IMG/VR virus record: IMGVR_UViG_3300020045_012956
Location: 1-64,000 of that record
Length of the DNA: 64,000 nucleotides
From: a virus
Lineage: Duplodnaviria; Heunggongvirae; Uroviricota; Caudoviricetes
Direction: 5' to 3' (one strand)
Shown here: in pieces, positions 4,668 to 60,878 of the stretch
Position numbering within the stretch: position 1 is the first letter of the stretch
Layout of the letters: every line of letters begins with the position of its first letter
Position numbers and translations under genes: made by a program
The notes under the pieces: generated by a model
What the model was told of the DNA's origin: nothing
The model's database searches: none
Seen by the model: the letters and a program-made list of their open reading frames with translations, nothing else

Positions 4668-4739
4668 CGCACGTTGGAGAAGTGGTATCTCACTAGCCTC
4701 ATAAGCTAGAGTTCATGGGTTCGAATCCCGTACGTTGCA
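4668..4739 (+). tRNA. tRNA-Met/Ile2-type (anticodon CAT) with a poorly paired acceptor stem
   Basis: D arm gaga-agtggta-tctc, anticodon arm ctagc-ctcataa-gctag, T arm atggg-ttcgaat-cccgt. The 5' acceptor strand pairs at only about 4 of 7 positions. Confidence 0.6.
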
Positions 4740-4741
4740 AC

Positions 4742-4790
4742 AAAGAGGAGTCTTTATACTGGCACGCAATTAATTTGCGTGCTTTTCTTA
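4742..4790 (+). promoter_or_regulatory. conserved late-leader element copy 1: small GGAG-loop hairpin plus terminator-like hairpin
   Basis: Hairpin aaag-aggagt-cttt, then gcacgcaa-ttaat-ttgcgtgc with a T-run, then 'ttatttatt...ataaaaaATGGCA'. It is paralogous to 11369-11417. Confidence 0.55.
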
Positions 4791-14049: not shown

Positions 14050-14073
14050 AAAATATTTTTAAATTTTTGTATT

Positions 14074-16704: not shown

Positions 16705-19700
16705 ATGGCTGAAAAGGTAATAATTGAGTTTGAACTATCCACAGAACAAGCGCAAAAATCATTAGAAAACTACATAAAAGCTATTCAAAAAGTTAACGAA
16801 TCTTTTGCAGATACAAGTAAAAAAGGCGTTGACTCTATGAATGCAGTTGACAAAGAAGTAAAAGAAACAACCGGATTAATAAACAAATTACGTGAACAAG
16901 AAAGTTTATTAAAAAAGTCTAGAGATTCTGCAAATGATGTAAATTCATTACGTAAATTCAATAATGAATTGAGAAAAACACAAACAGAATTACAAAGACT
17001 TGAATCAGTTGGAAAATCAGCGTTTTCTAAGATATTAGAAGATGCTAGAGCTACATTTACAGGTATTGCAGCTTTTAACGTCGCACAAGCGGGCTTACAA
17101 GGCATTAAAGACATTTTTAGTACTGGTTTTAATGCTGCTGTTAATCAAGAACAGTTTTTAATAAGTGCGGAAGTAATGTTAGGTAGTGCCGAAGCTGCAA
17201 AAATATTAAATCAAGAATTAACAGATTTAGCAGCTAGAACACCCTTTGAAAGTTCAGATTTGCAACAAGCAACAAAGGTTTTGTTAGGTTTTGGAGTTGA
17301 GGCTGACAAGTTATTACCAACTTTGAAAACTTTAGGAGATGTTTCAGGGGGCAACAGTGAAAAGCTTAACTCACTTGCACTTGCATTTGGTCAAGTTAAA
17401 GCTGCTGGCCGTTTAATGGGTCAAGAGGTTTTACAAATGATTAATGCAGGTTTTAACCCTTTACAAGAAATAAGCCGAAATACGGGGAAAAGTATGGCAA
17501 CCCTTAAGGCTGAAATGGAACGTGGTTTAATTGGATTTGACCAAGTTGAAAAGGCTTTTGTTACTGTAACGTCGGAGGGTGGAAAGTTCTTTAACATGAT
17601 GGAACGACAAAGCACCACAACGGGCGGCAAATTATCCACGTTAAAAGATAATTTTGTAATTCTTTTGCGTGATGGTGTTAATTTGTTGTTACCTGCTATA
17701 AACTCATTTATTGACTTTTTGAGTGCTACAATAACGTATATTTATGCTTTTGGGGTCGCTATTGCATCAATTCCAAAGTTTGTAAAAGAAAATAAAGATG
17801 TTTTTATGTTGTTAGGTAGTGCAATAGTATTATTTAACTTGCATTTAATAAGAAGTACTTCTTTATTATTATTAAATTTAGCAGCTCAAAAACTTGCAAT
17901 AATTGAGGGCAAAGCTTTTGCAACCGTTACTAATTTACAAAGTGCAGCATTGACTAGATTAATGGCAATAGCAATGGCAAACCCTTACGGTTTATTAGTT
18001 GGTGGCGTCGCTGCTTTAGTAGCTGGAATAGTTTATTTGAATAAGGAAACTGAAAAAGGAAATAAATTAAGAAACGAAGCTACAGAATCACTTGGAAAAG
18101 AACTTACAAATTTAGAAAGTCTTGTAATAGTTGCAACATCAGATGTTAGAACTAGAGAGGAAAGAATACAAGCTATTAACGAATTAAACGCAGTTTACGG
18201 GCAATATCTTAGCTTTTTAATTGATGAGTATACAAGTTTAGATTTGATAAGAAGGGCACAAGAAGAAGTTACAAGGGCAATGGTAAACAATACTTTGTAT
18301 AAAATGAAAGCTAAGGAACAAGAGGAAAACCTAACTAACCAGGTCAAACAAAGGTTAACCCTTCTAAATATGATTGAAGAAAAGGATAATGGACTTTCAT
18401 CAACCCAAAGAGAGAATTTAGGTAATTTGTTAAGAGAATACGAAACATTAAATATTCAATTAAAAACATTTTCAGAAACTTATGCAAGGTTAAATGAATT
18501 AAAAGAAGAAGAAAAGGAACAAACAAAAACCTTAGCAAGTTTACAAGGCACTTTGAAAGGATTAGATCCAAATTTGCCCGCAAATTTAGCACAAATCAAT
18601 AAATTTAGAAAAGACGAGGCTAATACTTTAGAATTGATAGCAAAAACACAAAATGAAATAAGACAAATTGAAGAAAGAGCCGCAAAAAGAGCTAAAGAGG
18701 ATGGTAATGTTTTTGATACTGAAACAAATATAAAAAGGCGTTTAGAAGTAATTAGGAGAAATGCTGGTGATATTGGTTCAACTGTAACGGGACTTGCAGA
18801 AGGTATTTCAGATTTATTTGGAGATACTAGTATAAGGGCTAATATTGTTAAATACTTTGATAATATCGACAAAGGAGTAAGTACAATTGACAGATATAGA
18901 GTTGCTATTATAGGAACAAATGGAGAAGTAAAGAAAAACACTAACATAGTCAACGCAAATGCAGGTGGGAGCGGTTCAGCGCACGGAAAAGCAGCAAAGC
19001 AATATGAATACAACCTCAAACTAATTGAGGCTAATACAAAGGCTATTGAGGCTAATATTACCAAAATGCAGGAACAAACTGATTTAATTAAATTACAAGA
19101 AATTCAACGTAAATCCAAAGCAACTCAATTAAAAATCGAAATTGATAACCAAGCTTTGCAAACTAGTGTACTTAAAAGAGAATCAACAGAACGACAAAAT
19201 ATAGCACTTAACGAATTACAAAAGGATAGAGACCGTGAACTTGAAAAGCTTAATGATGCTAAGAAAAAAGCAGAATTGAGGCTTAAAAACGAGTTTATAA
19301 CAACAGACGAACGTAATAGAATTATTACATTTATTACAACTGAATATCAATCTAATCTTTTGCAATTGACTAATAATTTTGAGAGTGAAAAAAATAAAAT
19401 TACTGATGCTTATCAAAATGATAATTTGAAAATTGTTGAGTTTAGTTATCAAAAACAAGTGCAATACTTAAACACTTTTATAGATCAACAAAAAGAAGCC
19501 TTAAAAAAGGGTGTTATTGAGTTAAACGACATTAATAAACAGTTTCAAGTTGCTAAAATTGCGGATATTGGAAGTTCACAGGCACAAGGCGCTAGTCAAT
19601 TAATTGAAAAGGATAGACAAGTAGAAAATGAAAACTTGGTACAAAAAGAATTATTAGAAGCTAGAAAAAAGAATGAAGATGAACTTTCAGAAGCTAAAAG

Positions 19701-20979
19701 AAAACGTATTTATGCTGGTACAATTCAAGAAATAGCAGCTATTGAATTAGAAATAGATGCTTACAAAGCTAAATTAAAAGTAATTGAAAATGATTTGGAT
19801 AAGTCAGCACAAAGAAGGTATGATATAGAATATTCTTACTTACAAAAAGTTAATGAATTGAATTTGAGAATCTTAAATGAACAAATTGAGAAAAGAGAAA
19901 AAGCAGAACAAGACATTCAAGACCGTTTAAGCTCAATTCGTGATAATGTAGCAAAACAAGGAGGTTTAGGGGGTGAAATAGGGCAAAATATTATCAATTT
20001 AGGTAATGACTTTATAAAATTGCAAGTTAAATTTGAAGAAACTGCAATGGCTTTAAGGTTAAAAGCTAGAAAAGAAGGTTTGCAAAAGTTGTATGATGCT
20101 GAAGTTGCCGCAAATGGCAAACAGTCTGAATTAGCAAAGAAGTTAAAAGCAGAAATTGAAGATAATGAGAAAGAAACTATTGAGGCTCAAAAACAATTTC
20201 AAATTCAACGTTTTAACTCAACTGTTGACTTTATCTTAAATTCTGTTTTAGCCGTTACTAGTGCATTAGGGCAAATAATTGATGTTCAAATTGCACAACA
20301 AGACAGATTAATTAAGGCACAAGAACAAAGAGTTGAAGAGGCTGAAAAGTTAGCAGAAAAAGGAAATGCAGTTCAATTAAAACTAGAAAAGCAGCGTTTG
20401 GATGACTTAAATAAGGAGCGTGAAAAGTTTGTACGTAAGCAGCAAGCTTTAGCAGTCATTGAATTATTAGCTAATAGTGCGGCTGCAATTGCTAAGAGTG
20501 CAAACATGCCCCCACCTTTTAACATTATTGCAATAGCGGCAACGGTAGCGGCTTTGGGGGCTGGTTTAGTAGCTGCAAAACAAAAAGCGCAAGCGGCTGC
20601 AAGTGGATTCAAAACGGGTGGTTATACTGGAGACGGTTCAACGAGTCAAGAGGCTGGAGTGGTTCACAAAAAAGAGTTTGTTTTTACGGCTGAAAAAACC
20701 GCAAAGTATAAACCTATATTTCAGGCAATCCACGAAAATAGATTAGATTTGAATAAAGCTTTATTGATGCCAAAAATGAAAGAAAGTGTATTAATGATGC
20801 GAGGGGGTGAAACTACGAATTTAGATACTAGTAATTTGGAAAAAAGAATGGAAAATATTGAAAGTGCTATTTTGAGTTTACCAAATAAAATGCCTCAAAC
20901 AAATGTAAGTATCAATGAACATGGTATTTATGCAATTACAGAAAGACAAAAGAAATTAAACAATAGGTTAAAAGGTTAG
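16705..20979 (+). CDS. tail tape measure protein (TP901-family core)
   Basis: 1424 aa, largely coiled coil. The region 'LAFGQVKAAGRLMGQEVLQMINAGFNPLQEIS' and 'GGKFFNMMERQSTTTGGKLSTLKDN' matches the TP901-type tape measure core. Internal TM segments; C-terminal 'GGYTGDG'. Confidence 0.8.
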   Translation: MAEKVIIEFELSTEQAQKSLENYIKAIQKVNESFADTSKKGVDSMNAVDKEVKETTGLINKLREQESLLKKSRDSANDVNSLRKFNNELRKTQTELQRLESVGKSAFSKILEDARATFTGIAAFNVAQAGLQGIKDIFSTGFNAAVNQEQFLISAEVMLGSAEAAKILNQELTDLAARTPFESSDLQQATKVLLGFGVEADKLLPTLKTLGDVSGGNSEKLNSLALAFGQVKAAGRLMGQEVLQMINAGFNPLQEISRNTGKSMATLKAEMERGLIGFDQVEKAFVTVTSEGGKFFNMMERQSTTTGGKLSTLKDNFVILLRDGVNLLLPAINSFIDFLSATITYIYAFGVAIASIPKFVKENKDVFMLLGSAIVLFNLHLIRSTSLLLLNLAAQKLAIIEGKAFATVTNLQSAALTRLMAIAMANPYGLLVGGVAALVAGIVYLNKETEKGNKLRNEATESLGKELTNLESLVIVATSDVRTREERIQAINELNAVYGQYLSFLIDEYTSLDLIRRAQEEVTRAMVNNTLYKMKAKEQEENLTNQVKQRLTLLNMIEEKDNGLSSTQRENLGNLLREYETLNIQLKTFSETYARLNELKEEEKEQTKTLASLQGTLKGLDPNLPANLAQINKFRKDEANTLELIAKTQNEIRQIEERAAKRAKEDGNVFDTETNIKRRLEVIRRNAGDIGSTVTGLAEGISDLFGDTSIRANIVKYFDNIDKGVSTIDRYRVAIIGTNGEVKKNTNIVNANAGGSGSAHGKAAKQYEYNLKLIEANTKAIEANITKMQEQTDLIKLQEIQRKSKATQLKIEIDNQALQTSVLKRESTERQNIALNELQKDRDRELEKLNDAKKKAELRLKNEFITTDERNRIITFITTEYQSNLLQLTNNFESEKNKITDAYQNDNLKIVEFSYQKQVQYLNTFIDQQKEALKKGVIELNDINKQFQVAKIADIGSSQAQGASQLIEKDRQVENENLVQKELLEARKKNEDELSEAKRKRIYAGTIQEIAAIELEIDAYKAKLKVIENDLDKSAQRRYDIEYSYLQKVNELNLRILNEQIEKREKAEQDIQDRLSSIRDNVAKQGGLGGEIGQNIINLGNDFIKLQVKFEETAMALRLKARKEGLQKLYDAEVAANGKQSELAKKLKAEIEDNEKETIEAQKQFQIQRFNSTVDFILNSVLAVTSALGQIIDVQIAQQDRLIKAQEQRVEEAEKLAEKGNAVQLKLEKQRLDDLNKEREKFVRKQQALAVIELLANSAAAIAKSANMPPPFNIIAIAATVAALGAGLVAAKQKAQAAASGFKTGGYTGDGSTSQEAGVVHKKEFVFTAEKTAKYKPIFQAIHENRLDLNKALLMPKMKESVLMMRGGETTNLDTSNLEKRMENIESAILSLPNKMPQTNVSINEHGIYAITERQKKLNNRLKG

Positions 20980-21002
20980 ATTTGTATTCATAAATTTTTA
21001 TA

Positions 21003-21029
21003 AGGCTGTTAGAAATAACAGCTTTTTTA
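21003..21029 (+). terminator. rho-independent terminator after the tape measure gene
   Basis: Hairpin ggctgtt-agaaat-aacagc followed by 'ttttttatt'. Confidence 0.55.
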
Positions 21030-21086
21030 TTGTTGAAAATCAAGTATTTAGAAAATAATTAAAAAATAATTTGCTTTTTTTGTATT

Positions 21087-21114
21087 TTGTATTACAAAAA
21101 GTATTAACTTTGCA
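21087..21114 (+). promoter_or_regulatory. early promoter (conserved family) driving the tRNA-like cluster
   Basis: The sequence ttgtattacaaaaagtattaactttgca ends 9 nt before the tRNA-like gene. Confidence 0.5.
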
Positions 21115-21123
21115 TTGTTGAAA

Positions 21124-21307
21124 TGGTCGGGTGGCGAAATGGTAAACGCATAAGAGCAAGTCACGTATAAGAGCAAGTATCTTTAAGGAAATTGATAAAA
21201 GCATGAAGACTAGTTAGTAGTGTAAGTAATTATAAGAGAAACAAAAAGGAGTAATTAACCTAATAAAAGTATCTTATTCCTTTGTTGGTTCGATTCCAAC
21301 CCCGACC
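21124..21307 (+). tRNA. tRNA-like gene with a ~110-nt insertion where the anticodon arm should be (intron-like or disrupted)
   Basis: Perfect 7-bp acceptor stem ggtcggg/cccgacc, D arm gcga-aatggtaa-acgc, T arm gttgg-ttcgatt-ccaac. The insert contains the tandem duplication 'ataagagcaagt' x2. No canonical 7-nt anticodon loop can be reconstructed at any splice point. Confidence 0.45.
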
Positions 21308-21371
21308 CCATAAAATGCAACTCCGTAATATTTGATTATGTCATACCCTTAATGGTTGGAGCAATGCTAGC

Positions 21372-21441
21372 AGCCTTTTAGTTTAATTGGATAAAATGAC
21401 CATTGCGAAATGGTAGATTAGGGTTCGAATCCTTAAAAGGC
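21372..21441 (+). ncRNA. tRNA-shaped RNA with a 6-bp stem and GNRA tetraloop (accatt-gcga-aatggt) in place of the anticodon arm
   Basis: Acceptor gcctttt/aaaaggc (7 bp), D arm ttta-attgga-taaa, T arm aggg-ttcgaat-cctt. The loop cannot be an anticodon loop. Confidence 0.4.
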
Positions 21442-21664
21442 ACAAACTTCGAAGTCAAAACCATTGTTGTATCTACAATATTAACGGTTTAGCGGGTGTT
21501 TGATTAAAAAAGATATTACTAATGTGATATTTAGATGTAGAAGGTTTATTCTTTAGATACCTACACAATTCACAATTGGTTTTTATTCAGTGAGGATAGT
21601 TTTTAATAGGAAATTTTTTGACTCACATTTTTTTATAAAACAATTAAAACATAAATAAAAGATA

Positions 21665-21892
21665 ATGAAACAAATAACAATTATATTTTTAGCTTTGATG
21701 TTTTTTACATCTTGCCATGAAGCTAAACAAATAAAATCAAAAGAAGTTGAGTATGAGCGAGTTGGAAATAATTTTAGCATATTTTATCTTAAAATCAAAG
21801 GAATGGATTATGCAATATCTTCCAGTGGAAATTCTTTTAGAAATCTAACATTAGATAGTCTACAATTCGAATATTATAAGAATCTAAAATAA
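21665..21892 (+). CDS. small lipoprotein
   Basis: The signal 'MKQITIIFLALMFFTSC' carries a lipobox (FTSC). It shares a 23-nt leader 'aacaattaaaacataaataaaa' with the next gene. Confidence 0.4.
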   Translation: MKQITIIFLALMFFTSCHEAKQIKSKEVEYERVGNNFSIFYLKIKGMDYAISSSGNSFRNLTLDSLQFEYYKNLK

Positions 21893-21913
21893 AACAATTA
21901 AAACATAAATAAA

Positions 21914-22315
21914 ATGAAATTAACAGGTAAGTTATTTAGAATTATGGACACTCAAAACGTGAGTGCAACCTATAAAAAACGAGAATTCGTTTTGGAAGTT
22001 GCTGAAAATCCAGCATTTCCACAAATGATTAAATTAGAACTTTCTCAAGACCGTTGCAGCGTTTTAGATAAGTTCAAATTAGAACAAATCGTAGAATGTG
22101 ATATAAACCTAAGGGGGCGTATTTGGATTAATCCGCAAGGCGTTGAAACGTTTTTTAACACTATTGAAGCGTGGAGAATTGCACCCGTTGGAACTGAAAC
22201 ACAACCAACTACGACAACTACAAACGTAAAAGAAGAGTTGTATAAACCACAACCACCCGAAAACGTTAAGCCTCAAGAATTTACAAACCCAGTAAGCGAC
22301 GATTTACCTTTTTAA
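21914..22315 (+). CDS. DUF3127-like OB-fold protein with an SSB-type acidic C-terminal tail (…DDLPF)
   Basis: 'KREFVLEV...YPQ..K.EL.QDRC..LD.FK...NLRGR.W.NPQG...FFNT.EAWRI' resembles DUF3127. The C-terminus 'SDDLPF' mimics the SSB 'DDDIPF' tip. Confidence 0.5.
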   Translation: MKLTGKLFRIMDTQNVSATYKKREFVLEVAENPAFPQMIKLELSQDRCSVLDKFKLEQIVECDINLRGRIWINPQGVETFFNTIEAWRIAPVGTETQPTTTTTNVKEELYKPQPPENVKPQEFTNPVSDDLPF

Positions 22316-22318
22316 GTT

Positions 22319-22552
22319 ATGGAAAATACAAAAGAATATTTTATGTTGTTAGTTGAGGGTTCTGAAAGGGCTCCTAAATTTGTACATGAATCTGAAACTT
22401 TAGCAGAAATCGAAGCTAAAAGGCTTAATTCTCTTTTTAATAAACCTGTTTATATTTTGAAAATTCAAAATGTGATTGAATCTAAAATAATTCAACAAAC
22501 AGTAGTAGAAAAAATAAAACCAAGTGACTTTTTTAATGAACTACCCTTTTAA
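22319..22552 (+). CDS. small protein with a second SSB-like C-terminal tail (…FNELPF)
   Basis: 77 aa ending in 'DFFNELPF', directly downstream of the DDLPF protein. Confidence 0.4.
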   Translation: MENTKEYFMLLVEGSERAPKFVHESETLAEIEAKRLNSLFNKPVYILKIQNVIESKIIQQTVVEKIKPSDFFNELPF

Positions 22553-22555
22553 TTT

Positions 22556-22789
22556 ATGAGATTCAAAGAATTTGAAAAGCTAATTACAGACGTTATAAAA
22601 GCAGATATTCCAATTCCTGACGGTTTATCTGCAATTATAAATGAAACTGATTACAACGAAATTATACCACCTCAAAACAATTTAGATGACTTTGGTAGAT
22701 TTGGTGTAGAACTCAACATAAAATTCTTAGGTAAAGATGTTAATGTATTTCTAGTAAATGAAAAATACGTAAAAACAACAAAGTTATGA
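22556..22789 (+). CDS. hypothetical protein
   Basis: 77 aa, tightly packed. Confidence 0.3.
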   Translation: MRFKEFEKLITDVIKADIPIPDGLSAIINETDYNEIIPPQNNLDDFGRFGVELNIKFLGKDVNVFLVNEKYVKTTKL

Positions 22790-23145
22790 AACTTAAAAAA
22801 ATAAATAAAGCCTTGTTAATCAACCAGGCTATTAAAAAAGCTAATATTGATGTATCAAATTTAAGCCCTAATACAACCGTTAATTTAGTAGACGGTGTGT
22901 TAATATTAGATAAACCTAAAAAGTGCTTTATAAGTGCTAAAAATGAGAATGAAACACCTTTAGAGAAATGCAAAAGATTATATTACGAAGGTGTTGAATT
23001 TGAAGTTTATTCTAGTAATAGAATTCAAACTATACCAAATGATTTTCGAATTGATATAGAATATGGAGATATTATACTTTATTTAACAGCTCAAAAATAT
23101 ACTTTATACAGTAAATCATTTGATTCGTATGTTAAAATAATCTAA
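22786..23145 (+). CDS. hypothetical protein
   Basis: 119 aa with an ATGA overlap. Confidence 0.35.
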   Translation: MKLKKINKALLINQAIKKANIDVSNLSPNTTVNLVDGVLILDKPKKCFISAKNENETPLEKCKRLYYEGVEFEVYSSNRIQTIPNDFRIDIEYGDIILYLTAQKYTLYSKSFDSYVKII

Positions 23146-53147: not shown

Positions 53148-55547
53148 ATGAACAACAATTATTTAGAGTTTCTTGAAAAAAAGAAACATTCAATAGGTGA
53201 ATTTGGATTTGAACCAAATTATATGCCTAAAATTGCCTTTGATTTTCAACAGGCAATAATTACAAAAGCAGTTAAAAAAGGGCGTATTGCTGTATTTGCA
53301 GATACAGGATTAGGAAAAGCGCAACCATATTCAGAACCCGTATTAACACCTAATGGATTTATAAAAATGGGTGAACTAAATGTAAATGATTTAGTTATTA
53401 ATTCAGATGGAAAGCATGTTAAAATATTAGGAATTTATGAACAAGGCGTAAAAGATGTTTACAAAGTAACATTTAATGATGGTACATTTACTAGATGCTG
53501 TATTGATCATTTATGGAATGTTAGAACAAGAAACGAAAAGAAAAGAGGATATGACTTTAAAACAAAACCACTCAGTGAAATAATTAAAGATTATTCAAAA
53601 GATATTAAAGATAGTAGGTATCCAGATAAATTATATAAAGATTATAAATATCACATACCAATATGTAATAAAGTTGAATTTGCAGAATCAGAAAATAATT
53701 TACCTATTAATCCTTATTTATTAGGATTGCTTATAGGAGATGGTGGAATGACCAGTAAATCTCTAATTATTACATCAACAAAAAAATCTATATTAAATTC
53801 AGTAACGGAATACTTACCTAAAGAAGATTATTTAGCTGATTCAAAAAGTATTAATTATACAATTAGAAATAAAAAATATTCAAATCAACCTAGCAAAACT
53901 AAAACGGAATTAGTAAAACTTGGATTATTTGGTAAATTATCAAAAGAAAAATTCATACCTGAAATATATAAGTATGCAAGTATTGAAAATAGAGAATTAT
54001 TACTTAATGGATTGATAGATACAGATGGATATAAAGTAAGTAATGATTATATTGAATATAGTACAGCATCAGAAAATCTATGTAATGATATTTCTTTTTT
54101 AGCTAGAAGTTTAGGATATGTTGTTAGAGTTTTTGAAAGAGATTCTCATTATATAAAAGATAATGTAAAACATTCAGGATTTAAAAATTATAGAGTTTAT
54201 ATAATAAAAAACGGTTCTAGAAAATTAAAAACTATAACAAATATCGAATTATGTGATAAAGAAGAATGTAGATGTATTTTAATTGATTGTAAAAGTCATT
54301 TATACATTACAAATAATTTTATTGTAACTCACAATACATTAATCGAGTTGTCAATAGCAAAAAACATTGTAAATCACACAAATAAAAAGGTTTTAATTTT
54401 AACCCCTTTAGCCGTAGCTTTTCAATTACTTCTAGAAGCTGAAAAAATATTTATAGATGACATTGAATATTCAAAGGATGGAAAACACTCAAAAAAAATA
54501 GTTATTTGCAATTATGAAAGATTACATTATTTTGATTCAAATGATTTTATAGCTGTTATTTTAGATGAAAGTTCTATATTAAAAAACTTTGATGGAGCTA
54601 TTAAAAATAAAGTAAATACATTTGTAAAAAAAATTCAATATAGATTTTTAAGTACCGCGACACCTTCTCCAAATGATTTTATCGAATTAGGGACTAGTAG
54701 TGAAGCACTTGGATATATGGGTTATGTAGATATGTTGGGTAAATTTTTTAAACAAAATAATAATGCAATTGATTCAACTAATAAAAATATTGGAGAAAAG
54801 TTCTATTTGAAACCTCACGCAGAAAAAGACTTTTTTGCATGGGTTAATCAATGGTCTATTATGGTAAAAATGCCTAGTGATTTAGGGTTTTCAAATGAAA
54901 AATATATTTTACCTCAATTAATAACTAATAAACATATTGTACAAAATGAAAGCCAAATTGATATAAATGGACAAATACAAATGTTTAATATAGTCGCTAA
55001 AAACTTCAATGAAATTAGACATGAACAAAAACAAACAGAACAACAAAGATGTATAAAAGCTGTTGAGTTAGCTCAAAATAAAACCTCTGTATATTGGTGT
55101 AATACAAATAATGAAAGTGCACTATTGAAAAAAATGGATAAAGAAGCGGTTGAAATTATTGGTAGTCAATCCATCGAAAAGAAAGAAGAAATTTTATTAG
55201 CATTTAGCAAAGGAGAAATAAAACGAATTATTACTAAAGCTAAAATAACATCATTTGGATTAAATTGGCAACATTGCAATCATAGTGTATTTTTTCCTAC
55301 TTGGAGTTATGAACAATATTATCAAGCTATTAGAAGGTTTTGGAGATTTGGACAAAAGAATGATGTTAATATTGATATTGTTGTTTCTGATGGACAAACA
55401 AGAGTACTAGATGCTTTACAACAGAAAACAAAAAAAGCAATTGAACTATACGAAAACCTAACTAAAAACGTTAATAGCGTTTTTGTAAATACTAAAAAAG
55501 AATTCAAAAAAGAAGTTATTTTACCAAAATTTATAAAAAATGAATAA
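53148..55547 (+). CDS. SNF2-family (DExH) helicase interrupted by an intein
   Basis: N-extein '…FADTGLGK' and C-extein 'TLIELSIAKN…' rejoin to the SNF2 motif I 'DTGLGKT'. Also 'ILDESS' (motif II) and 'QAIRRFWRFGQ' (motif VI). Confidence 0.7.
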   Translation: MNNNYLEFLEKKKHSIGEFGFEPNYMPKIAFDFQQAIITKAVKKGRIAVFADTGLGKAQPYSEPVLTPNGFIKMGELNVNDLVINSDGKHVKILGIYEQGVKDVYKVTFNDGTFTRCCIDHLWNVRTRNEKKRGYDFKTKPLSEIIKDYSKDIKDSRYPDKLYKDYKYHIPICNKVEFAESENNLPINPYLLGLLIGDGGMTSKSLIITSTKKSILNSVTEYLPKEDYLADSKSINYTIRNKKYSNQPSKTKTELVKLGLFGKLSKEKFIPEIYKYASIENRELLLNGLIDTDGYKVSNDYIEYSTASENLCNDISFLARSLGYVVRVFERDSHYIKDNVKHSGFKNYRVYIIKNGSRKLKTITNIELCDKEECRCILIDCKSHLYITNNFIVTHNTLIELSIAKNIVNHTNKKVLILTPLAVAFQLLLEAEKIFIDDIEYSKDGKHSKKIVICNYERLHYFDSNDFIAVILDESSILKNFDGAIKNKVNTFVKKIQYRFLSTATPSPNDFIELGTSSEALGYMGYVDMLGKFFKQNNNAIDSTNKNIGEKFYLKPHAEKDFFAWVNQWSIMVKMPSDLGFSNEKYILPQLITNKHIVQNESQIDINGQIQMFNIVAKNFNEIRHEQKQTEQQRCIKAVELAQNKTSVYWCNTNNESALLKKMDKEAVEIIGSQSIEKKEEILLAFSKGEIKRIITKAKITSFGLNWQHCNHSVFFPTWSYEQYYQAIRRFWRFGQKNDVNIDIVVSDGQTRVLDALQQKTKKAIELYENLTKNVNSVFVNTKKEFKKEVILPKFIKNE
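53319..54335 (+). mobile_element. intein (339 aa) with a double-motif LAGLIDADG homing endonuclease, inserted in the helicase P-loop
   Basis: Starts 'AQPYSEPVLTPNGFIKMGELNVNDLVINSDG' (block A-like, Ala1). Two endonuclease motifs: 'LLGLLIGDGGM' and 'LLLNGLIDTDGYK'. It ends '…FIVTHN' followed by the +1 Thr. Confidence 0.65.
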
Positions 55548-56565
55548 AGTTAAAGATCAAATTATTACAGAAAATTATAGCATTTATAATGCTGATTGCT
55601 ACGATGTAGTACAAGAAATTCCAAACGAATCAATAGATCTTTCGGTATATTCTCCTCCGTTTTGTGGGTTGTATAATTACAGTTCAGACCATAGAGATAT
55701 GAGTAATTGCGAATCTAAAGAACAGTTTTTGCAACAATATGAATTTTTAATTGCTGAAATTGCAAGGGTAACCAAAAAAGGACGTATTACTGCTGTCCAT
55801 TGTACAGATGTATTTGATAATCAGTGTAATTTGTGGGACTTCCCAAGCGAAATAATAAAGATTCATGAAAAATATGGATTCCAATATAGAAATAGAATTA
55901 CAATTTGGAAAGAGCCTTTGAAAGTTAGAATGCGTACAATGGTACAATCTTTAATGCACAAATTCATAGTTGAAGATTCTGTAAATTGTTTTACCGCAAT
56001 GCCTGACTACGTTTTAATTTTTACTAAAAAAGGTAAAAATGAAGTACCAGTAACACATCCATGCGGATTAAATTATTATGCTGGTGAAACTCCAATTTTA
56101 CCAAACATTTTAAGAGCTTGGAATAATGCAAATGAATCAAATATAAATGAAGTTCAATTATGGGAACACTTGAAAACTAAATTTGAAGACCACAAAGACC
56201 CAAAAAGCAATAAGTTAAGTCATTACATTTGGCAACGTTATGCTAGTTCTGTTTGGGATGACATAAGAATTGATAATGTTTTACCTTTTAAAGATTCAAA
56301 AGAAGAAGACGATGAGAAGCACGTCCATCCTCTCCAATTGGATGTAATTGACAGATTAGTAGAACTTTACTCAAATCCTAATGAAGTTGTTTTAACTCCC
56401 TTTATGGGGGTAGGTAGTGAGGTTTATAGTCCAGTTTCAATGGGTAGAAAAGCAATTGGAATAGAGCTAAAAGATAGTTACTTCAAACAAGCTATATTAA
56501 ACTTAAAAGAAGCTAAGAATAGATTTAATGATGAAACTAAAAGACAAATATCACTTTTTGAATAA
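55540..56565 (+). CDS. DNA methyltransferase (N6-adenine/N4-cytosine, beta-class order: motif IV before motif I)
   Basis: Motif IV 'DLSVYSPPF' is N-terminal and motif I 'VLTPFMGVGSE' is C-terminal. Confidence 0.65.
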   Translation: MNKVKDQIITENYSIYNADCYDVVQEIPNESIDLSVYSPPFCGLYNYSSDHRDMSNCESKEQFLQQYEFLIAEIARVTKKGRITAVHCTDVFDNQCNLWDFPSEIIKIHEKYGFQYRNRITIWKEPLKVRMRTMVQSLMHKFIVEDSVNCFTAMPDYVLIFTKKGKNEVPVTHPCGLNYYAGETPILPNILRAWNNANESNINEVQLWEHLKTKFEDHKDPKSNKLSHYIWQRYASSVWDDIRIDNVLPFKDSKEEDDEKHVHPLQLDVIDRLVELYSNPNEVVLTPFMGVGSEVYSPVSMGRKAIGIELKDSYFKQAILNLKEAKNRFNDETKRQISLFE

Positions 56566-60805: not shown

Positions 60806-60878
60806 GTAGACTATTAGCTCAAATTTAGAGCACTTGACTAATGTTTTGAGGTTGTAGGTTAAATCCTGCATAGTCTAC
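60806..60878 (+). tRNA. degenerate tRNA-like gene (pseudo-tRNA): 9-bp acceptor stem, 6-nt T loop, unpaired anticodon stem
   Basis: Acceptor gtagactat/atagtctac, D arm gctc-aaattta-gagc, T arm gtagg-ttaaat-cctgc. The anticodon region 'cttga-ctaatgt-tttga' does not pair. It resembles a decayed copy of the Asn gene. Confidence 0.4.

Follow-up and report, generated by a model that had tools for sequence, protein, structure and literature searches.

A tRNA-shaped gene that has lost one base of its anticodon loop lies on the + strand at positions 21372-21443 of the 64,000-nt stretch of viral DNA analysed here (IMG/VR record IMGVR_UViG_3300020045_012956, positions 1 to 64,000; henceforth the window). 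The gene, which we call element 2, is derived from a tRNA-Arg(GCG), occurs in three independent assemblies and stands, together with a second tRNA-like gene (element 1), between a conserved phage promoter and the gene of a single-stranded DNA-binding (SSB)-like protein, in a slot where related phages hold other tRNA-shaped genes with abnormal anticodon regions. We propose, tentatively and with somewhat less than even confidence, that element 2 is a retained non-decoding module, kept for its tRNA shape and cut by RNase P and RNase Z in the manner of the t-elements of plant mitochondria.

The proposed mechanism is as follows. Element 2 would be transcribed from the phage promoter along with element 1, as the 5' part of a transcript that continues into a conserved non-coding block of ~185 nt and the SSB and replication genes, and the tRNA shape would be the property that is retained in element 2 and in its slot neighbours. 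Host RNase P would cut at the 5' end of element 2, and RNase Z would cut after its discriminator because no CCA is encoded, as RNase Z cleaves CCA-less tRNA precursors after the discriminator. Together, the two cuts would release a tRNA-like RNA of ~72 nt and leave the downstream leader or mRNA with a 5' end at CAAAC, directly behind an A. These predicted cleavage sites are exact to the base, which makes element 2 a directly testable case.

A tRNA body with a shortened anticodon arm

An earlier interpretation of this DNA (the sequence-only reading) had described a tRNA-shaped RNA, and two detection programs agree in calling a tRNA here. ARAGORN reports a "tRNA-???" at 21372-21443 with the 4-base "anticodon" gcga, and the Rfam tRNA model (RF00005) matches at 41.7 bits (gathering score 29), with E=1.9e-5 in a search of the entire window. 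The latter alignment is full-length, covering model positions 1-71/71, which places element 2 in the structural class of tRNAs. At E<=10 over 20950-21700, Rfam gives no YrlA match, and no further family comes near its threshold. For transfer-messenger RNA, the sole Rfam match is an 11-nt fragment of 7.1 bits (threshold 47), and ARAGORN reports none.

All four stems of element 2 pair and, at the sequence level, every tertiary-contact position is present. The acceptor stem can be drawn in two registers. GCCUUUU/AAAAGGC, the arrangement described in the sequence-only reading, is possible and gives 7/7 pairs and discriminator A, leaving a T stem of 4 bp. The universal tRNA positions favour AGCCUUU/AAAGGCA instead, with an A1.A72 mismatch, 6/7 pairs and discriminator C, a D stem GUUU/AAAU and a 5-bp T stem. 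We prefer this second register, which keeps U8, A14, G18G19, A21, G26, A15:U48 and G53-C61; in either one the acceptor-T stack comprises 11 Watson-Crick pairs. Positions 8-9 are U8 A9, position 26 is G26, and the variable region reads AGAU. The D arm (21381-21397) is GUUU-AAUUGGAUA-AAAU and carries G18G19 and the arginine identity base A20. The T arm (21419-21435) is UAGGG-UUCGAAU-CCUUA, with 5 bp and the consensus T loop TTCGAAT that had already been pointed out. All elbow contacts are present in the sequence, i.e. G18G19, the T54-Psi55-C56 T loop, U8/A14/A21 and R15:Y48. T arm and acceptor are also of the t-element type, with GGGTTCGAATCC at 21421-21432 and 6-7 acceptor pairs.

According to the covariance alignment, the anticodon arm (21399-21414) measures 16 nt, compared with the canonical 17 that form a 5-bp stem and a 7-nt loop. 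It can be read as the stem ACCAU/AUGGU with the loop UGCGAA (21404-21409) or, equally validly, as a 6-bp stem with a GCGA tetraloop (21405-21408) in which U33 pairs with A38. The latter form is the accatt/aatggt stem capped by GCGA that had been proposed before, and the accompanying statement that no 7-nt anticodon loop can form holds as well. This hairpin is part of the minimum-free-energy fold (z=-3.2; 1/200 shuffles folds equally well). With a loop one base short, codon reading by element 2 is almost certainly ruled out.

Descent from tRNA-Arg(GCG)

The bases A20, C35 and G36 are the arginine identity bases for the E. coli arginyl-tRNA synthetase (ArgRS). All three are found in element 2, the loop of which reads U-GCG-AA as in 31 canonical viral tRNA-Arg(GCG) genes and resembles the arginine loop Y-U-NCG-A-A minus one base. 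An IMG/VR pattern that allows either loop length (TGCGAA, 12-13 nt, GGTTCGAATCC) yielded 88 sites, 46 of which (39 distinct) are canonical tRNA-Arg(GCG) genes. Every aligned viral tRNA-Arg(GCG) gene (31-39) has the 7-nt loop YU-GCG-AA, and the 6-nt form is absent among the 88 sites. The nearest canonical gene (L059:4954-5029), a member of a 12-gene phage tRNA cluster, is identical to element 2 at 56/72 positions, shares its D loop and has the loop UU-GCG-AA, i.e. the loop of element 2 with a U added. A covariance model trained on 31 viral tRNA-Arg(GCG) genes finds element 2 as its best match in the window (57.9 bits, E=1.6e-14), although this score is partly circular, as the training genes were picked by the element-2 pattern (TGCGAA and T loop) and a canonical tRNA-Asn scores 54.8. 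The D-loop identity to the Arg(GCG) genes is independent of that selection pattern.

In the alignment to this model, element 2 is covered over its full length and lacks just one base, at position 32, the first of the loop. Any single-base insertion on the 5' side of the loop restores the ARAGORN tRNA-Arg call, and one T added to the TT run produces the canonical loop UU-GCG-AA. Element 2 descends from tRNA-Arg(GCG) and has lost one loop pyrimidine, position 32 or 33 of the 7-nt YU-GCG-AA loop being the one that is missing. The hairpin follows directly from this loss: once a pyrimidine is deleted from YU-GCG-AA, G34-A37 form the GCGA cap and U33 pairs with A38, giving the 6-bp stem. The perfect stem and GNRA tetraloop highlighted in the sequence-only reading are therefore real, but they are an automatic by-product of the deletion and hence no evidence of design.

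Exact or degenerate element-2 patterns (the 35-mer of anticodon and T arm, CCATTGCGAAATGGT-N6-GGGTTCGAATCC, the same anticodon stem with a 6-8 nt loop and the T arm, and the 20-mer of the 3' half) found no homologue in the searches of viral and genome contigs. A metagenome scan for ATTGCGAAAT-N8-12-GGTTCGAATCC returned 5 chance matches in GC-rich contigs, none of them a tRNA. Contig L013, where ATTGCGAAAT lies beside a T arm, gives no tRNA signal at E<=0.1 and was dismissed as a chance match.

Orthologues in independent assemblies

A search with the SSB-like protein revealed a 95%-identical protein on two further contigs, L116 (from another Joint Genome Institute sample, 3300051785) and L117 (Logan assembly, SRR35802775). 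Both carry an orthologue of element 2 (L116:752-823 and L117:76-147), 70/72 identical and with the same 6-nt loop. The only two differences from L116 both fall in the anticodon stem and keep its pairing, A27-U43 being replaced by G.U and U31-A39 by U.G.

Relative to L116, element 2 has diverged by 2.8% (2/72), the spacer by 3.2% and the terminator-promoter stretch by 1.4%. For comparison, third codon positions differ by 9.8% in the SSB gene and by 16.2% at the end of the gene for the tape measure protein (TMP), versus 1.4-3.2% for the leader in its entirety. Either constraint or recent sharing thus applies to this leader in general, and within it element 2 is nothing exceptional.

Promoter and leader

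A terminator-like hairpin with a T run (21002-21030, + strand; a 10-pair stem and then TTTTATTG), identical in L116, ends the TMP transcription unit. Downstream of it is the promoter box TTTGTATTTTGTATTACAAAAAGTATTAACTTTG (21079-21112, + strand), with a -33 TTTG and a -7 TAnnTTTG element, a combination that we take to be typical of Bacteroidota. The -33/-7 pattern matches 20 times in the window (expected 8.25+-2.66; 0/100 shuffles reach 20), and 10 of these matches are near-identical 34-nt boxes. Hence, the claim that both tRNA-like genes lie behind one promoter is credible, the box in question being one of 10 copies in the window, and it is kept in L116, L118 and L119. The ten sites (~34 nt each) are at 14066, 21079, 26039, 32838(-), 32944, 36323, 47199, 53093, 59241 and 61674, with the consensus TTTGT[AG]TTTTGTATTACA[AG]AAAGTA[TC]TAACTTTG. 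The other boxes checked end 17-40 nt before open reading frame (ORF) starts (26098, 32994, 36396, 47252, 53148 and 61727). The invariant core between the -33 and -7 elements, TTGTATTACAAAA, could be a regulator binding site.

The order of the leader in the window is terminator, box, 12 nt, element 1, a 63-nt spacer and element 2. L116 has the same order, and there element 2 ends 24 nt before the SSB ATG, leaving no room for a further promoter; the SSB operon is therefore presumably transcribed through both tRNA-shaped genes. The SSB-like gene itself (DUF3127; phrog_4932; 21914-22315, + strand) is the first conserved gene of the downstream replication/recombination module. Compared to L116 and L117, the window contains an insertion of ~470 nt, consisting of the conserved non-coding block and an ORF for a 75-aa lipoprotein-like protein (21665-21892, + strand), a cassette missing from both contigs. 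The leader sequence AACAATTAAAACATAAATAAAA is duplicated at 21640-21662 and 21890-21913, on either side of the 75-aa ORF, and the insertion resembles a small gene cassette that may have brought or copied its own leader.

Element 1

Element 1 (21125-21308, + strand) is tRNA-Cys-like, with the acceptor GGUCGGG/CCCGACC, the D stem GCG/CGC and the T arm GUUGG-UUCGAUU-CCAAC. The acceptor and both the D and the T arm correspond to those of viral tRNA-Cys(GCA) genes, and ~134 nt (21150-21283) stand in place of the anticodon and variable region, in agreement with the previous description of this neighbour as an insertion-bearing tRNA-like gene. It is called by neither ARAGORN nor Rfam. The L116 orthologue (618-689) is an uninterrupted 72-nt gene that ARAGORN calls as tRNA-Cys(GCA), with C37, discriminator A and A1.C72. 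In L119 (L119:30-198) the insert is ~90% identical, and the stems show compensatory changes between lineages (D stem GCG/CGC vs GUG/CAC; T stem GUUGG/CCAAC vs GAAGG/CCUUC). A 17-nt tandem duplication inside element 1 (21146-21178, + strand; ACGYATAAGAGCAAGT twice, as ACGCATAAGAGCAAGTC / ACGTATAAGAGCAAGTA) is found in the window only, not in L119.

The exon-like flanks of element 1 diverge at 4/25 and 2/25 positions, compared to ~2-3% in the surrounding DNA; flanks this diverged suggest that the module was exchanged by recombination. Three other interpretations were tried and rejected. A tRNA-Leu-like gene with a class II D arm conflicts with the match of the arms to tRNA-Cys(GCA) and the tRNA-Cys call of the L116 orthologue. 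An intron in element 1 finds no Rfam match, and 134 nt are too short for a group I intron. The 11-mer GCGAAATGGTA, common to the D arm of element 1 (21134-21144) and the anticodon arm of element 2 (21405-21415), is attributed to chance, as it is not kept in L116 (GTGAAATGGTA and GCGAAGTGGTA).

The same slot in related phages

More distant relatives hold other tRNA-shaped genes in this place. L119 and L121 (SSB 76% identical) have the same promoter type and one tRNA-Cys-like gene with a long insert of the element-1 type, which then runs into a T arm and an acceptor 3' strand unlike the window's. L118 (SSB 80%) carries a 69-nt element in which a seven-pair acceptor and a good T arm are combined with a tiny D loop and an odd anticodon region of 26 nt. 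In L122 and L123 (SSB 78% over part of the protein), the element is again 69 nt long but has a 13-nt anticodon arm with the 5-nt loop AUUAA, scoring 29.2 and 29.5 bits in the Rfam tRNA model, just at threshold. Its acceptor helix can be extended to 9 layers. Here the gene is part of a stand-alone unit (L122:614-817, L123:~100-295) composed of a TTTG-N20-TAATTTTG motif, the tRNA-shaped gene and a terminator-like hairpin (GGGGCT...AGCTCC and a T run); a 56-aa ORF and the SSB gene are found downstream of the unit. Relatives with an SSB that is 51-54% identical have nothing tRNA-like near the SSB gene.

An arm-by-arm audit of five element types shows that the D stems are fully paired, that every D loop contains GG, and that the T stems form 4-5/5 pairs and carry 7-nt T loops of the UUC type. 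The acceptors of the slot elements retain 5-7/7 pairs, while the anticodon region measures 13, 16, 17, 26, ~120 or ~134 nt; the audit is biased, since ARAGORN, Rfam and the covariance model tolerate changes of the anticodon arm far better than lesions of the T arm or acceptor. Length changes in the slot elements fall in the anticodon/variable region, the D loop of L118 being short as well. With tRNA-shaped genes of abnormal anticodon region in the same slot of the relatives, the term non-decoding tRNA mimic used in the sequence-only reading is reasonable as a structural description.

A conserved non-coding block behind the discriminator

Starting at the discriminator of element 2, a conserved non-coding block (ACAAACTTCGAAGT ... 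CAGTGAGGATAGTTTTTAATAGGAAATTTTTTGACTCACA) extends over 21442-21627 on the + strand. In the window, L118, L119 and L121, these ~185 nt show 86% mean column identity with long invariant runs, and the block is far better conserved than the adjacent SSB protein. It is located at L118:424-~612, L119:198-~385 and L121:~135-~322 and is absent from L116 and L117. In three lineages with three different tRNA-like genes, the block begins at the discriminator, with CAAACTTCGAAGT following directly on the A.

RNAalifold returns one compensatory pair and an unfavourable covariation term for the block, on an alignment too invariant for covariation to show, and no Rfam family matches it. We note a 10-bp palindrome (ACTTCGAAGT), a hairpin ATTGT-TGTATCT-ACAAT and a terminal GTGAG...CTCAC hairpin with a T run. 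Conceivably, the block serves as an operator region, encodes a leader or small RNA, or, given its place beside the replication genes, acts as an origin of replication.

Source phage and other tRNA-type genes of the window

The window has a G+C content of ~27%, nearly all genes on the + strand and many small ORFs, those on the + strand covering 81.5% of its length. It encodes a large terminase, a 1424-aa TMP (16705-20979), a virion protein, the SSB-like protein (DUF3127), an ERF recombinase, ThyX, DnaB-like and SNF2-type helicases and a DNA methyltransferase, and we assign it to a tailed phage because of this protein set. The host group is probably Bacteroidota, as indicated by the type of promoter motif and the fitting lipoprotein signal peptides. 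A blastn search of window positions 20000-23000 against 50,697 phage records produced no match, i.e. nothing similar among these deposited genomes, and the TMP C-terminus found no match in IMG/VR. Beyond the source's own protein, TMP relatives are <=42% identical and have another gene order and no tRNAs; IMG/VR relatives of the SSB at 38-48% identity are without tRNAs, too. CGY codons account for 81/477 arginine codons of the window, with CGT present as 73 codons in 63 ORFs. Two helicase ORFs, 53148-55547 and 55540-56565, overlap by 8 nt and match consecutive parts of the phrog_16 helicase profile (positions 301-622 and 649-915); the pair would be either a naturally split gene or a frameshift.

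Lesions are seen in further tRNA-type genes. A tRNA with the anticodon CAU (4669-4739) scores 54.1 bits in Rfam and gets no ARAGORN call, its 5' acceptor strand having 6 nt and its 3' strand 7 nt; one base inserted or deleted restores a tRNA-Met call. A TAACTTTG motif of its own precedes this gene by 5 nt, and a terminator-like hairpin follows it at ~4750-4780. Directly before tRNA-Ser(GCT), a degenerate tRNA-like sequence at 60808-60877 (Rfam 39.5 bits) has a D loop without GG, a 6-nt T loop and an 8-nt anticodon loop whose stem contains two G.U pairs. With damage spread over D loop, T loop and anticodon arm, it has the appearance of a tRNA gene in decay.

Discussion

Several observations hint that the tRNA shape of element 2 is retained, as we tentatively propose. 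The slot elements keep their D and T arms while the anticodon region varies, whereas the sequence at 60808-60877 is degraded throughout. The element 1 lineage combines compensatory stem changes with a ~90% conserved insert, and the non-coding block starts exactly at the discriminator. In addition, the leader (1.4-3.2%) is less diverged than third codon positions (9.8-16.2%).

Other points weigh against retention. The detectors are biased, and badly decayed remnants would go unseen. Orthologues of element 2 occur only in very close relatives and are no better conserved than the spacer, so that no element-specific selection signal emerges from the comparison. The pairing kept by both substitutions is of little weight, as we estimate that ~56% of random substitutions keep pairing; 2/2 is not significant and is expected by chance in ~1 in 3 cases. 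Acceptor stems are imperfect, with 5/7 pairs in L119, L122 and L123, and distant relatives lack a tRNA-like gene near the SSB. Moreover, the stand-alone unit of L122 and L123 is left unexplained by a role in leader processing, and the other lesioned tRNAs of the window (4669 and 60808) are consistent with general tRNA decay.

The strongest rival, which we consider nearly as probable as retention, is a plain pseudogene. A tRNA-Arg(GCG) would have been inactivated recently by one base and would persist, functionless, inside a conserved leader that was recently shared, the slot being a hotspot of tRNA gain and loss. Element 2 is one deleted base away from a canonical gene, a disabling lesion in the anticodon loop from which the tetraloop results automatically, and both its A1.A72 mismatch and its divergence, equal to that of the spacer, fit such a history. 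The 6-nt form never recurs among the 88 viral matches, 4/6 tRNA-type genes of the window carry lesions, and similar phage genes are already annotated as 'tRNA-OTHER' or 'tRNA-Pseudo'. CGY codons are also a minority of the arginine codons (81/477), and selection for decoding would therefore be weak. Mere decay is, however, less easily reconciled with the D and T arms that the slot elements keep, unlike the evenly degraded 60808 element, or with the insert and stems of element 1, which are conserved with compensatory changes, so that simple decay does not describe at least this neighbour. Pairing survives both substitutions in element 2, and the leader is more conserved than synonymous sites.

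Alternatively, but in our view improbably, the RNA may act in trans. A ~72-nt RNA released early in infection would bind to, or titrate, a host factor with affinity for the tRNA body, without entering translation; candidate targets are a defence nuclease or toxin acting at the acceptor end or elbow, a tRNA-modifying enzyme, the CCA-adding enzyme or ArgRS (A20/C35/G36). The complete tRNA body with all tertiary contacts and the arginine identity bases, its place directly behind a strong, repeated promoter, and the promoter-tRNA-like-terminator unit of L122 and L123, which resembles a small-RNA gene, are compatible with such a role, and phage tRNAs do counter tRNA-targeting defences (PMC10264068, PMC11464382, PMC11555353). 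Those counter-defence tRNAs, however, keep a 7-nt loop and still decode. Furthermore, none of the 48 proteins scanned is recognised as serving tRNA repair, defence or anti-defence, and conservation is confined to close relatives. A decoy for anticodon nucleases, in particular, is unlikely because the anticodon loop is the very part of element 2 that is destroyed.

A more far-reaching model, equally doubtful in our assessment, would extend this to the entire slot. Phages of probably Bacteroidota hosts would maintain a slot of interchangeable non-decoding tRNA mimics, with the promoter on the 5' side and the ~185-nt block and replication genes on the 3' side, in which the anticodon arm has been deliberately replaced by a GNRA cap, a pentaloop arm or a ~100-nt expansion. 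The RNAs would act in trans early in infection, for instance by titrating a host factor or defence protein, or would form an origin or primer-processing unit together with the block.

That element 2 is still a working tRNA is very improbable. In this scenario, the U33-A38 pair would open to give a 6-nt or frayed 8-nt loop, and the RNA would be charged by ArgRS and read CGY or promote frameshifting. A20, C35 and G36 are indeed present, ARAGORN models an 8-nt loop with a 4-base anticodon, and the phage uses CGT (73 codons in 63 ORFs). Nevertheless, all 31-39 canonical viral Arg(GCG) tRNAs have 7-nt loops, and the arm is short, not long, so that an 8-nt loop can be drawn only on a 4-bp stem that includes a G.A pair. 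The stable fold is the 6-bp/GNRA hairpin, and we found no literature on natural 6-nt anticodon loops.

Two further explanations have next to no probability left. An attachment (att)-site remnant or host tRNA fragment, which the sequence-only reading had kept as an alternative, would be conceivable in that integration often takes place at tRNA genes and leaves fragments behind (PMC9897764), but the cloverleaf is complete, its 20-nt 3' half has 0 exact matches in genomes of 185,579 species (one each) or IMG/VR, element 2 lies between tape-measure and SSB genes in three phage contigs, and, in line with what had been stated, no integrase was found among the 48 scanned proteins of the window (~11 kb of the source contig lie outside the window). 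A sequencing or assembly error in the TT/TTT run, the true gene being a canonical tRNA-Arg(GCG), would explain why one added T gives the canonical loop UU-GCG-AA, but such a random indel is hardly credible because the same 6-nt loop appears in two more assemblies from other samples and pipelines and the ten longest ORFs of the window (17.6 kb), including the 4.3-kb TMP ORF, are unbroken.

Separately, four viral contigs (L035:1668, L049:867, L068:2753 and L071:10810(-)) contain a canonical Arg-type anticodon arm (UCUUU-CUGCGAA-AAAGA) and a T arm without a recognisable 5' half. These sequences may be tRNA 3' fragments such as attachment sites.

Comparison with known systems

Phage tRNA genes are usually regarded as suppliers of codons or as replacements for host tRNAs cut by nucleases, and aberrant ones are dismissed as pseudogenes and annotated inconsistently. 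With a canonical phage tRNA-Arg(GCG), such as that at L059:4954-5029, element 2 shares the cloverleaf, the D loop AAUUGGAUA, U33-G34-C35-G36-A37-A38, the T loop and an AU-rich acceptor; it differs in being one loop base short, in its A1.A72 and in presenting no normal anticodon. The Enterococcus phage phiSHEF16 (L010, 44150-44216) carries a 67-nt tRNA-Arg-like gene with an 11-nt anticodon arm that is 97-100% conserved in 11 Enterococcus phages and for which the annotations range from tRNA-Arg, tRNA-OTHER and tRNA-Pseudo-ATG to none. It resembles element 2 in its tRNA-Arg-like D and T arms, a shortened anticodon arm and the lack of a normal ARAGORN call. However, the two match at E=0.2 over universal motifs only and belong to other phage families and hosts, with no evidence of homology. 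In Bacillus cereus, Rogers et al. in 2012 reportedly described a pseudo-tRNA, 'tRNA-Other', as a tRNA-like gene without normal decoding that has a regulatory effect. It is chromosomal and has other structural defects, and we liken it to element 2 by description only.

Altered anticodon loops are also known from phage tRNAs whose mutations in the loop let them escape anticodon nucleases (PMC10264068), and T5 tRNAs act against PARIS and retron effectors (PMC11464382, PMC11555353). The nuclease-evading tRNAs keep a 7-nt loop with substitutions and replace cleaved host tRNAs in translation, whereas in element 2 the length of the loop has changed. YrlA (Y RNA-like) tRNA mimics (PMC4201824) join a tRNA-like D/T/acceptor module to a non-tRNA part at the anticodon arm and resemble element 1 especially. 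In contrast to them, the RNA here gives no Rfam YrlA match at E<=10 and ends in an acceptor stem, not in a Ro-binding stem, and no Ro60 orthologue is present among the scanned proteins.

Closest to the mechanism proposed here are the t-elements of plant mitochondria, non-canonical cloverleafs with a conserved GGTTCRANYCC arm that direct cuts by RNase Z and RNase P, as shown experimentally with RNase Z for the cox1 leader (PMC1920247). Like element 2, they form part of longer transcripts and retain an acceptor-like stem together with the GGTTCRANYCC T arm. Their 3' edge has been mapped experimentally as the start of the downstream RNA; that of element 2 coincides with the start of the conserved block. 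Unlike t-elements, element 2 is phage-borne, with a probable Bacteroidota host and a cleavage that is predicted, and some relatives carry a stand-alone unit.

In conclusion, aberrant phage tRNA genes and tRNA-like processing elements are both known already. What is new is a slot in a phage family that holds several tRNA-shaped genes, nearly all of them apparently non-decoding, fused to a conserved promoter and a non-coding block beside replication genes. If only decay is at work, element 2 is a well-documented example of the death of a phage tRNA gene, and it warns against taking a GNRA-capped anticodon stem as a sign of design. Should the shape be retained, it would represent a bacterial-virus counterpart of the plant mitochondrial processing elements, or a new class of phage tRNA mimics.

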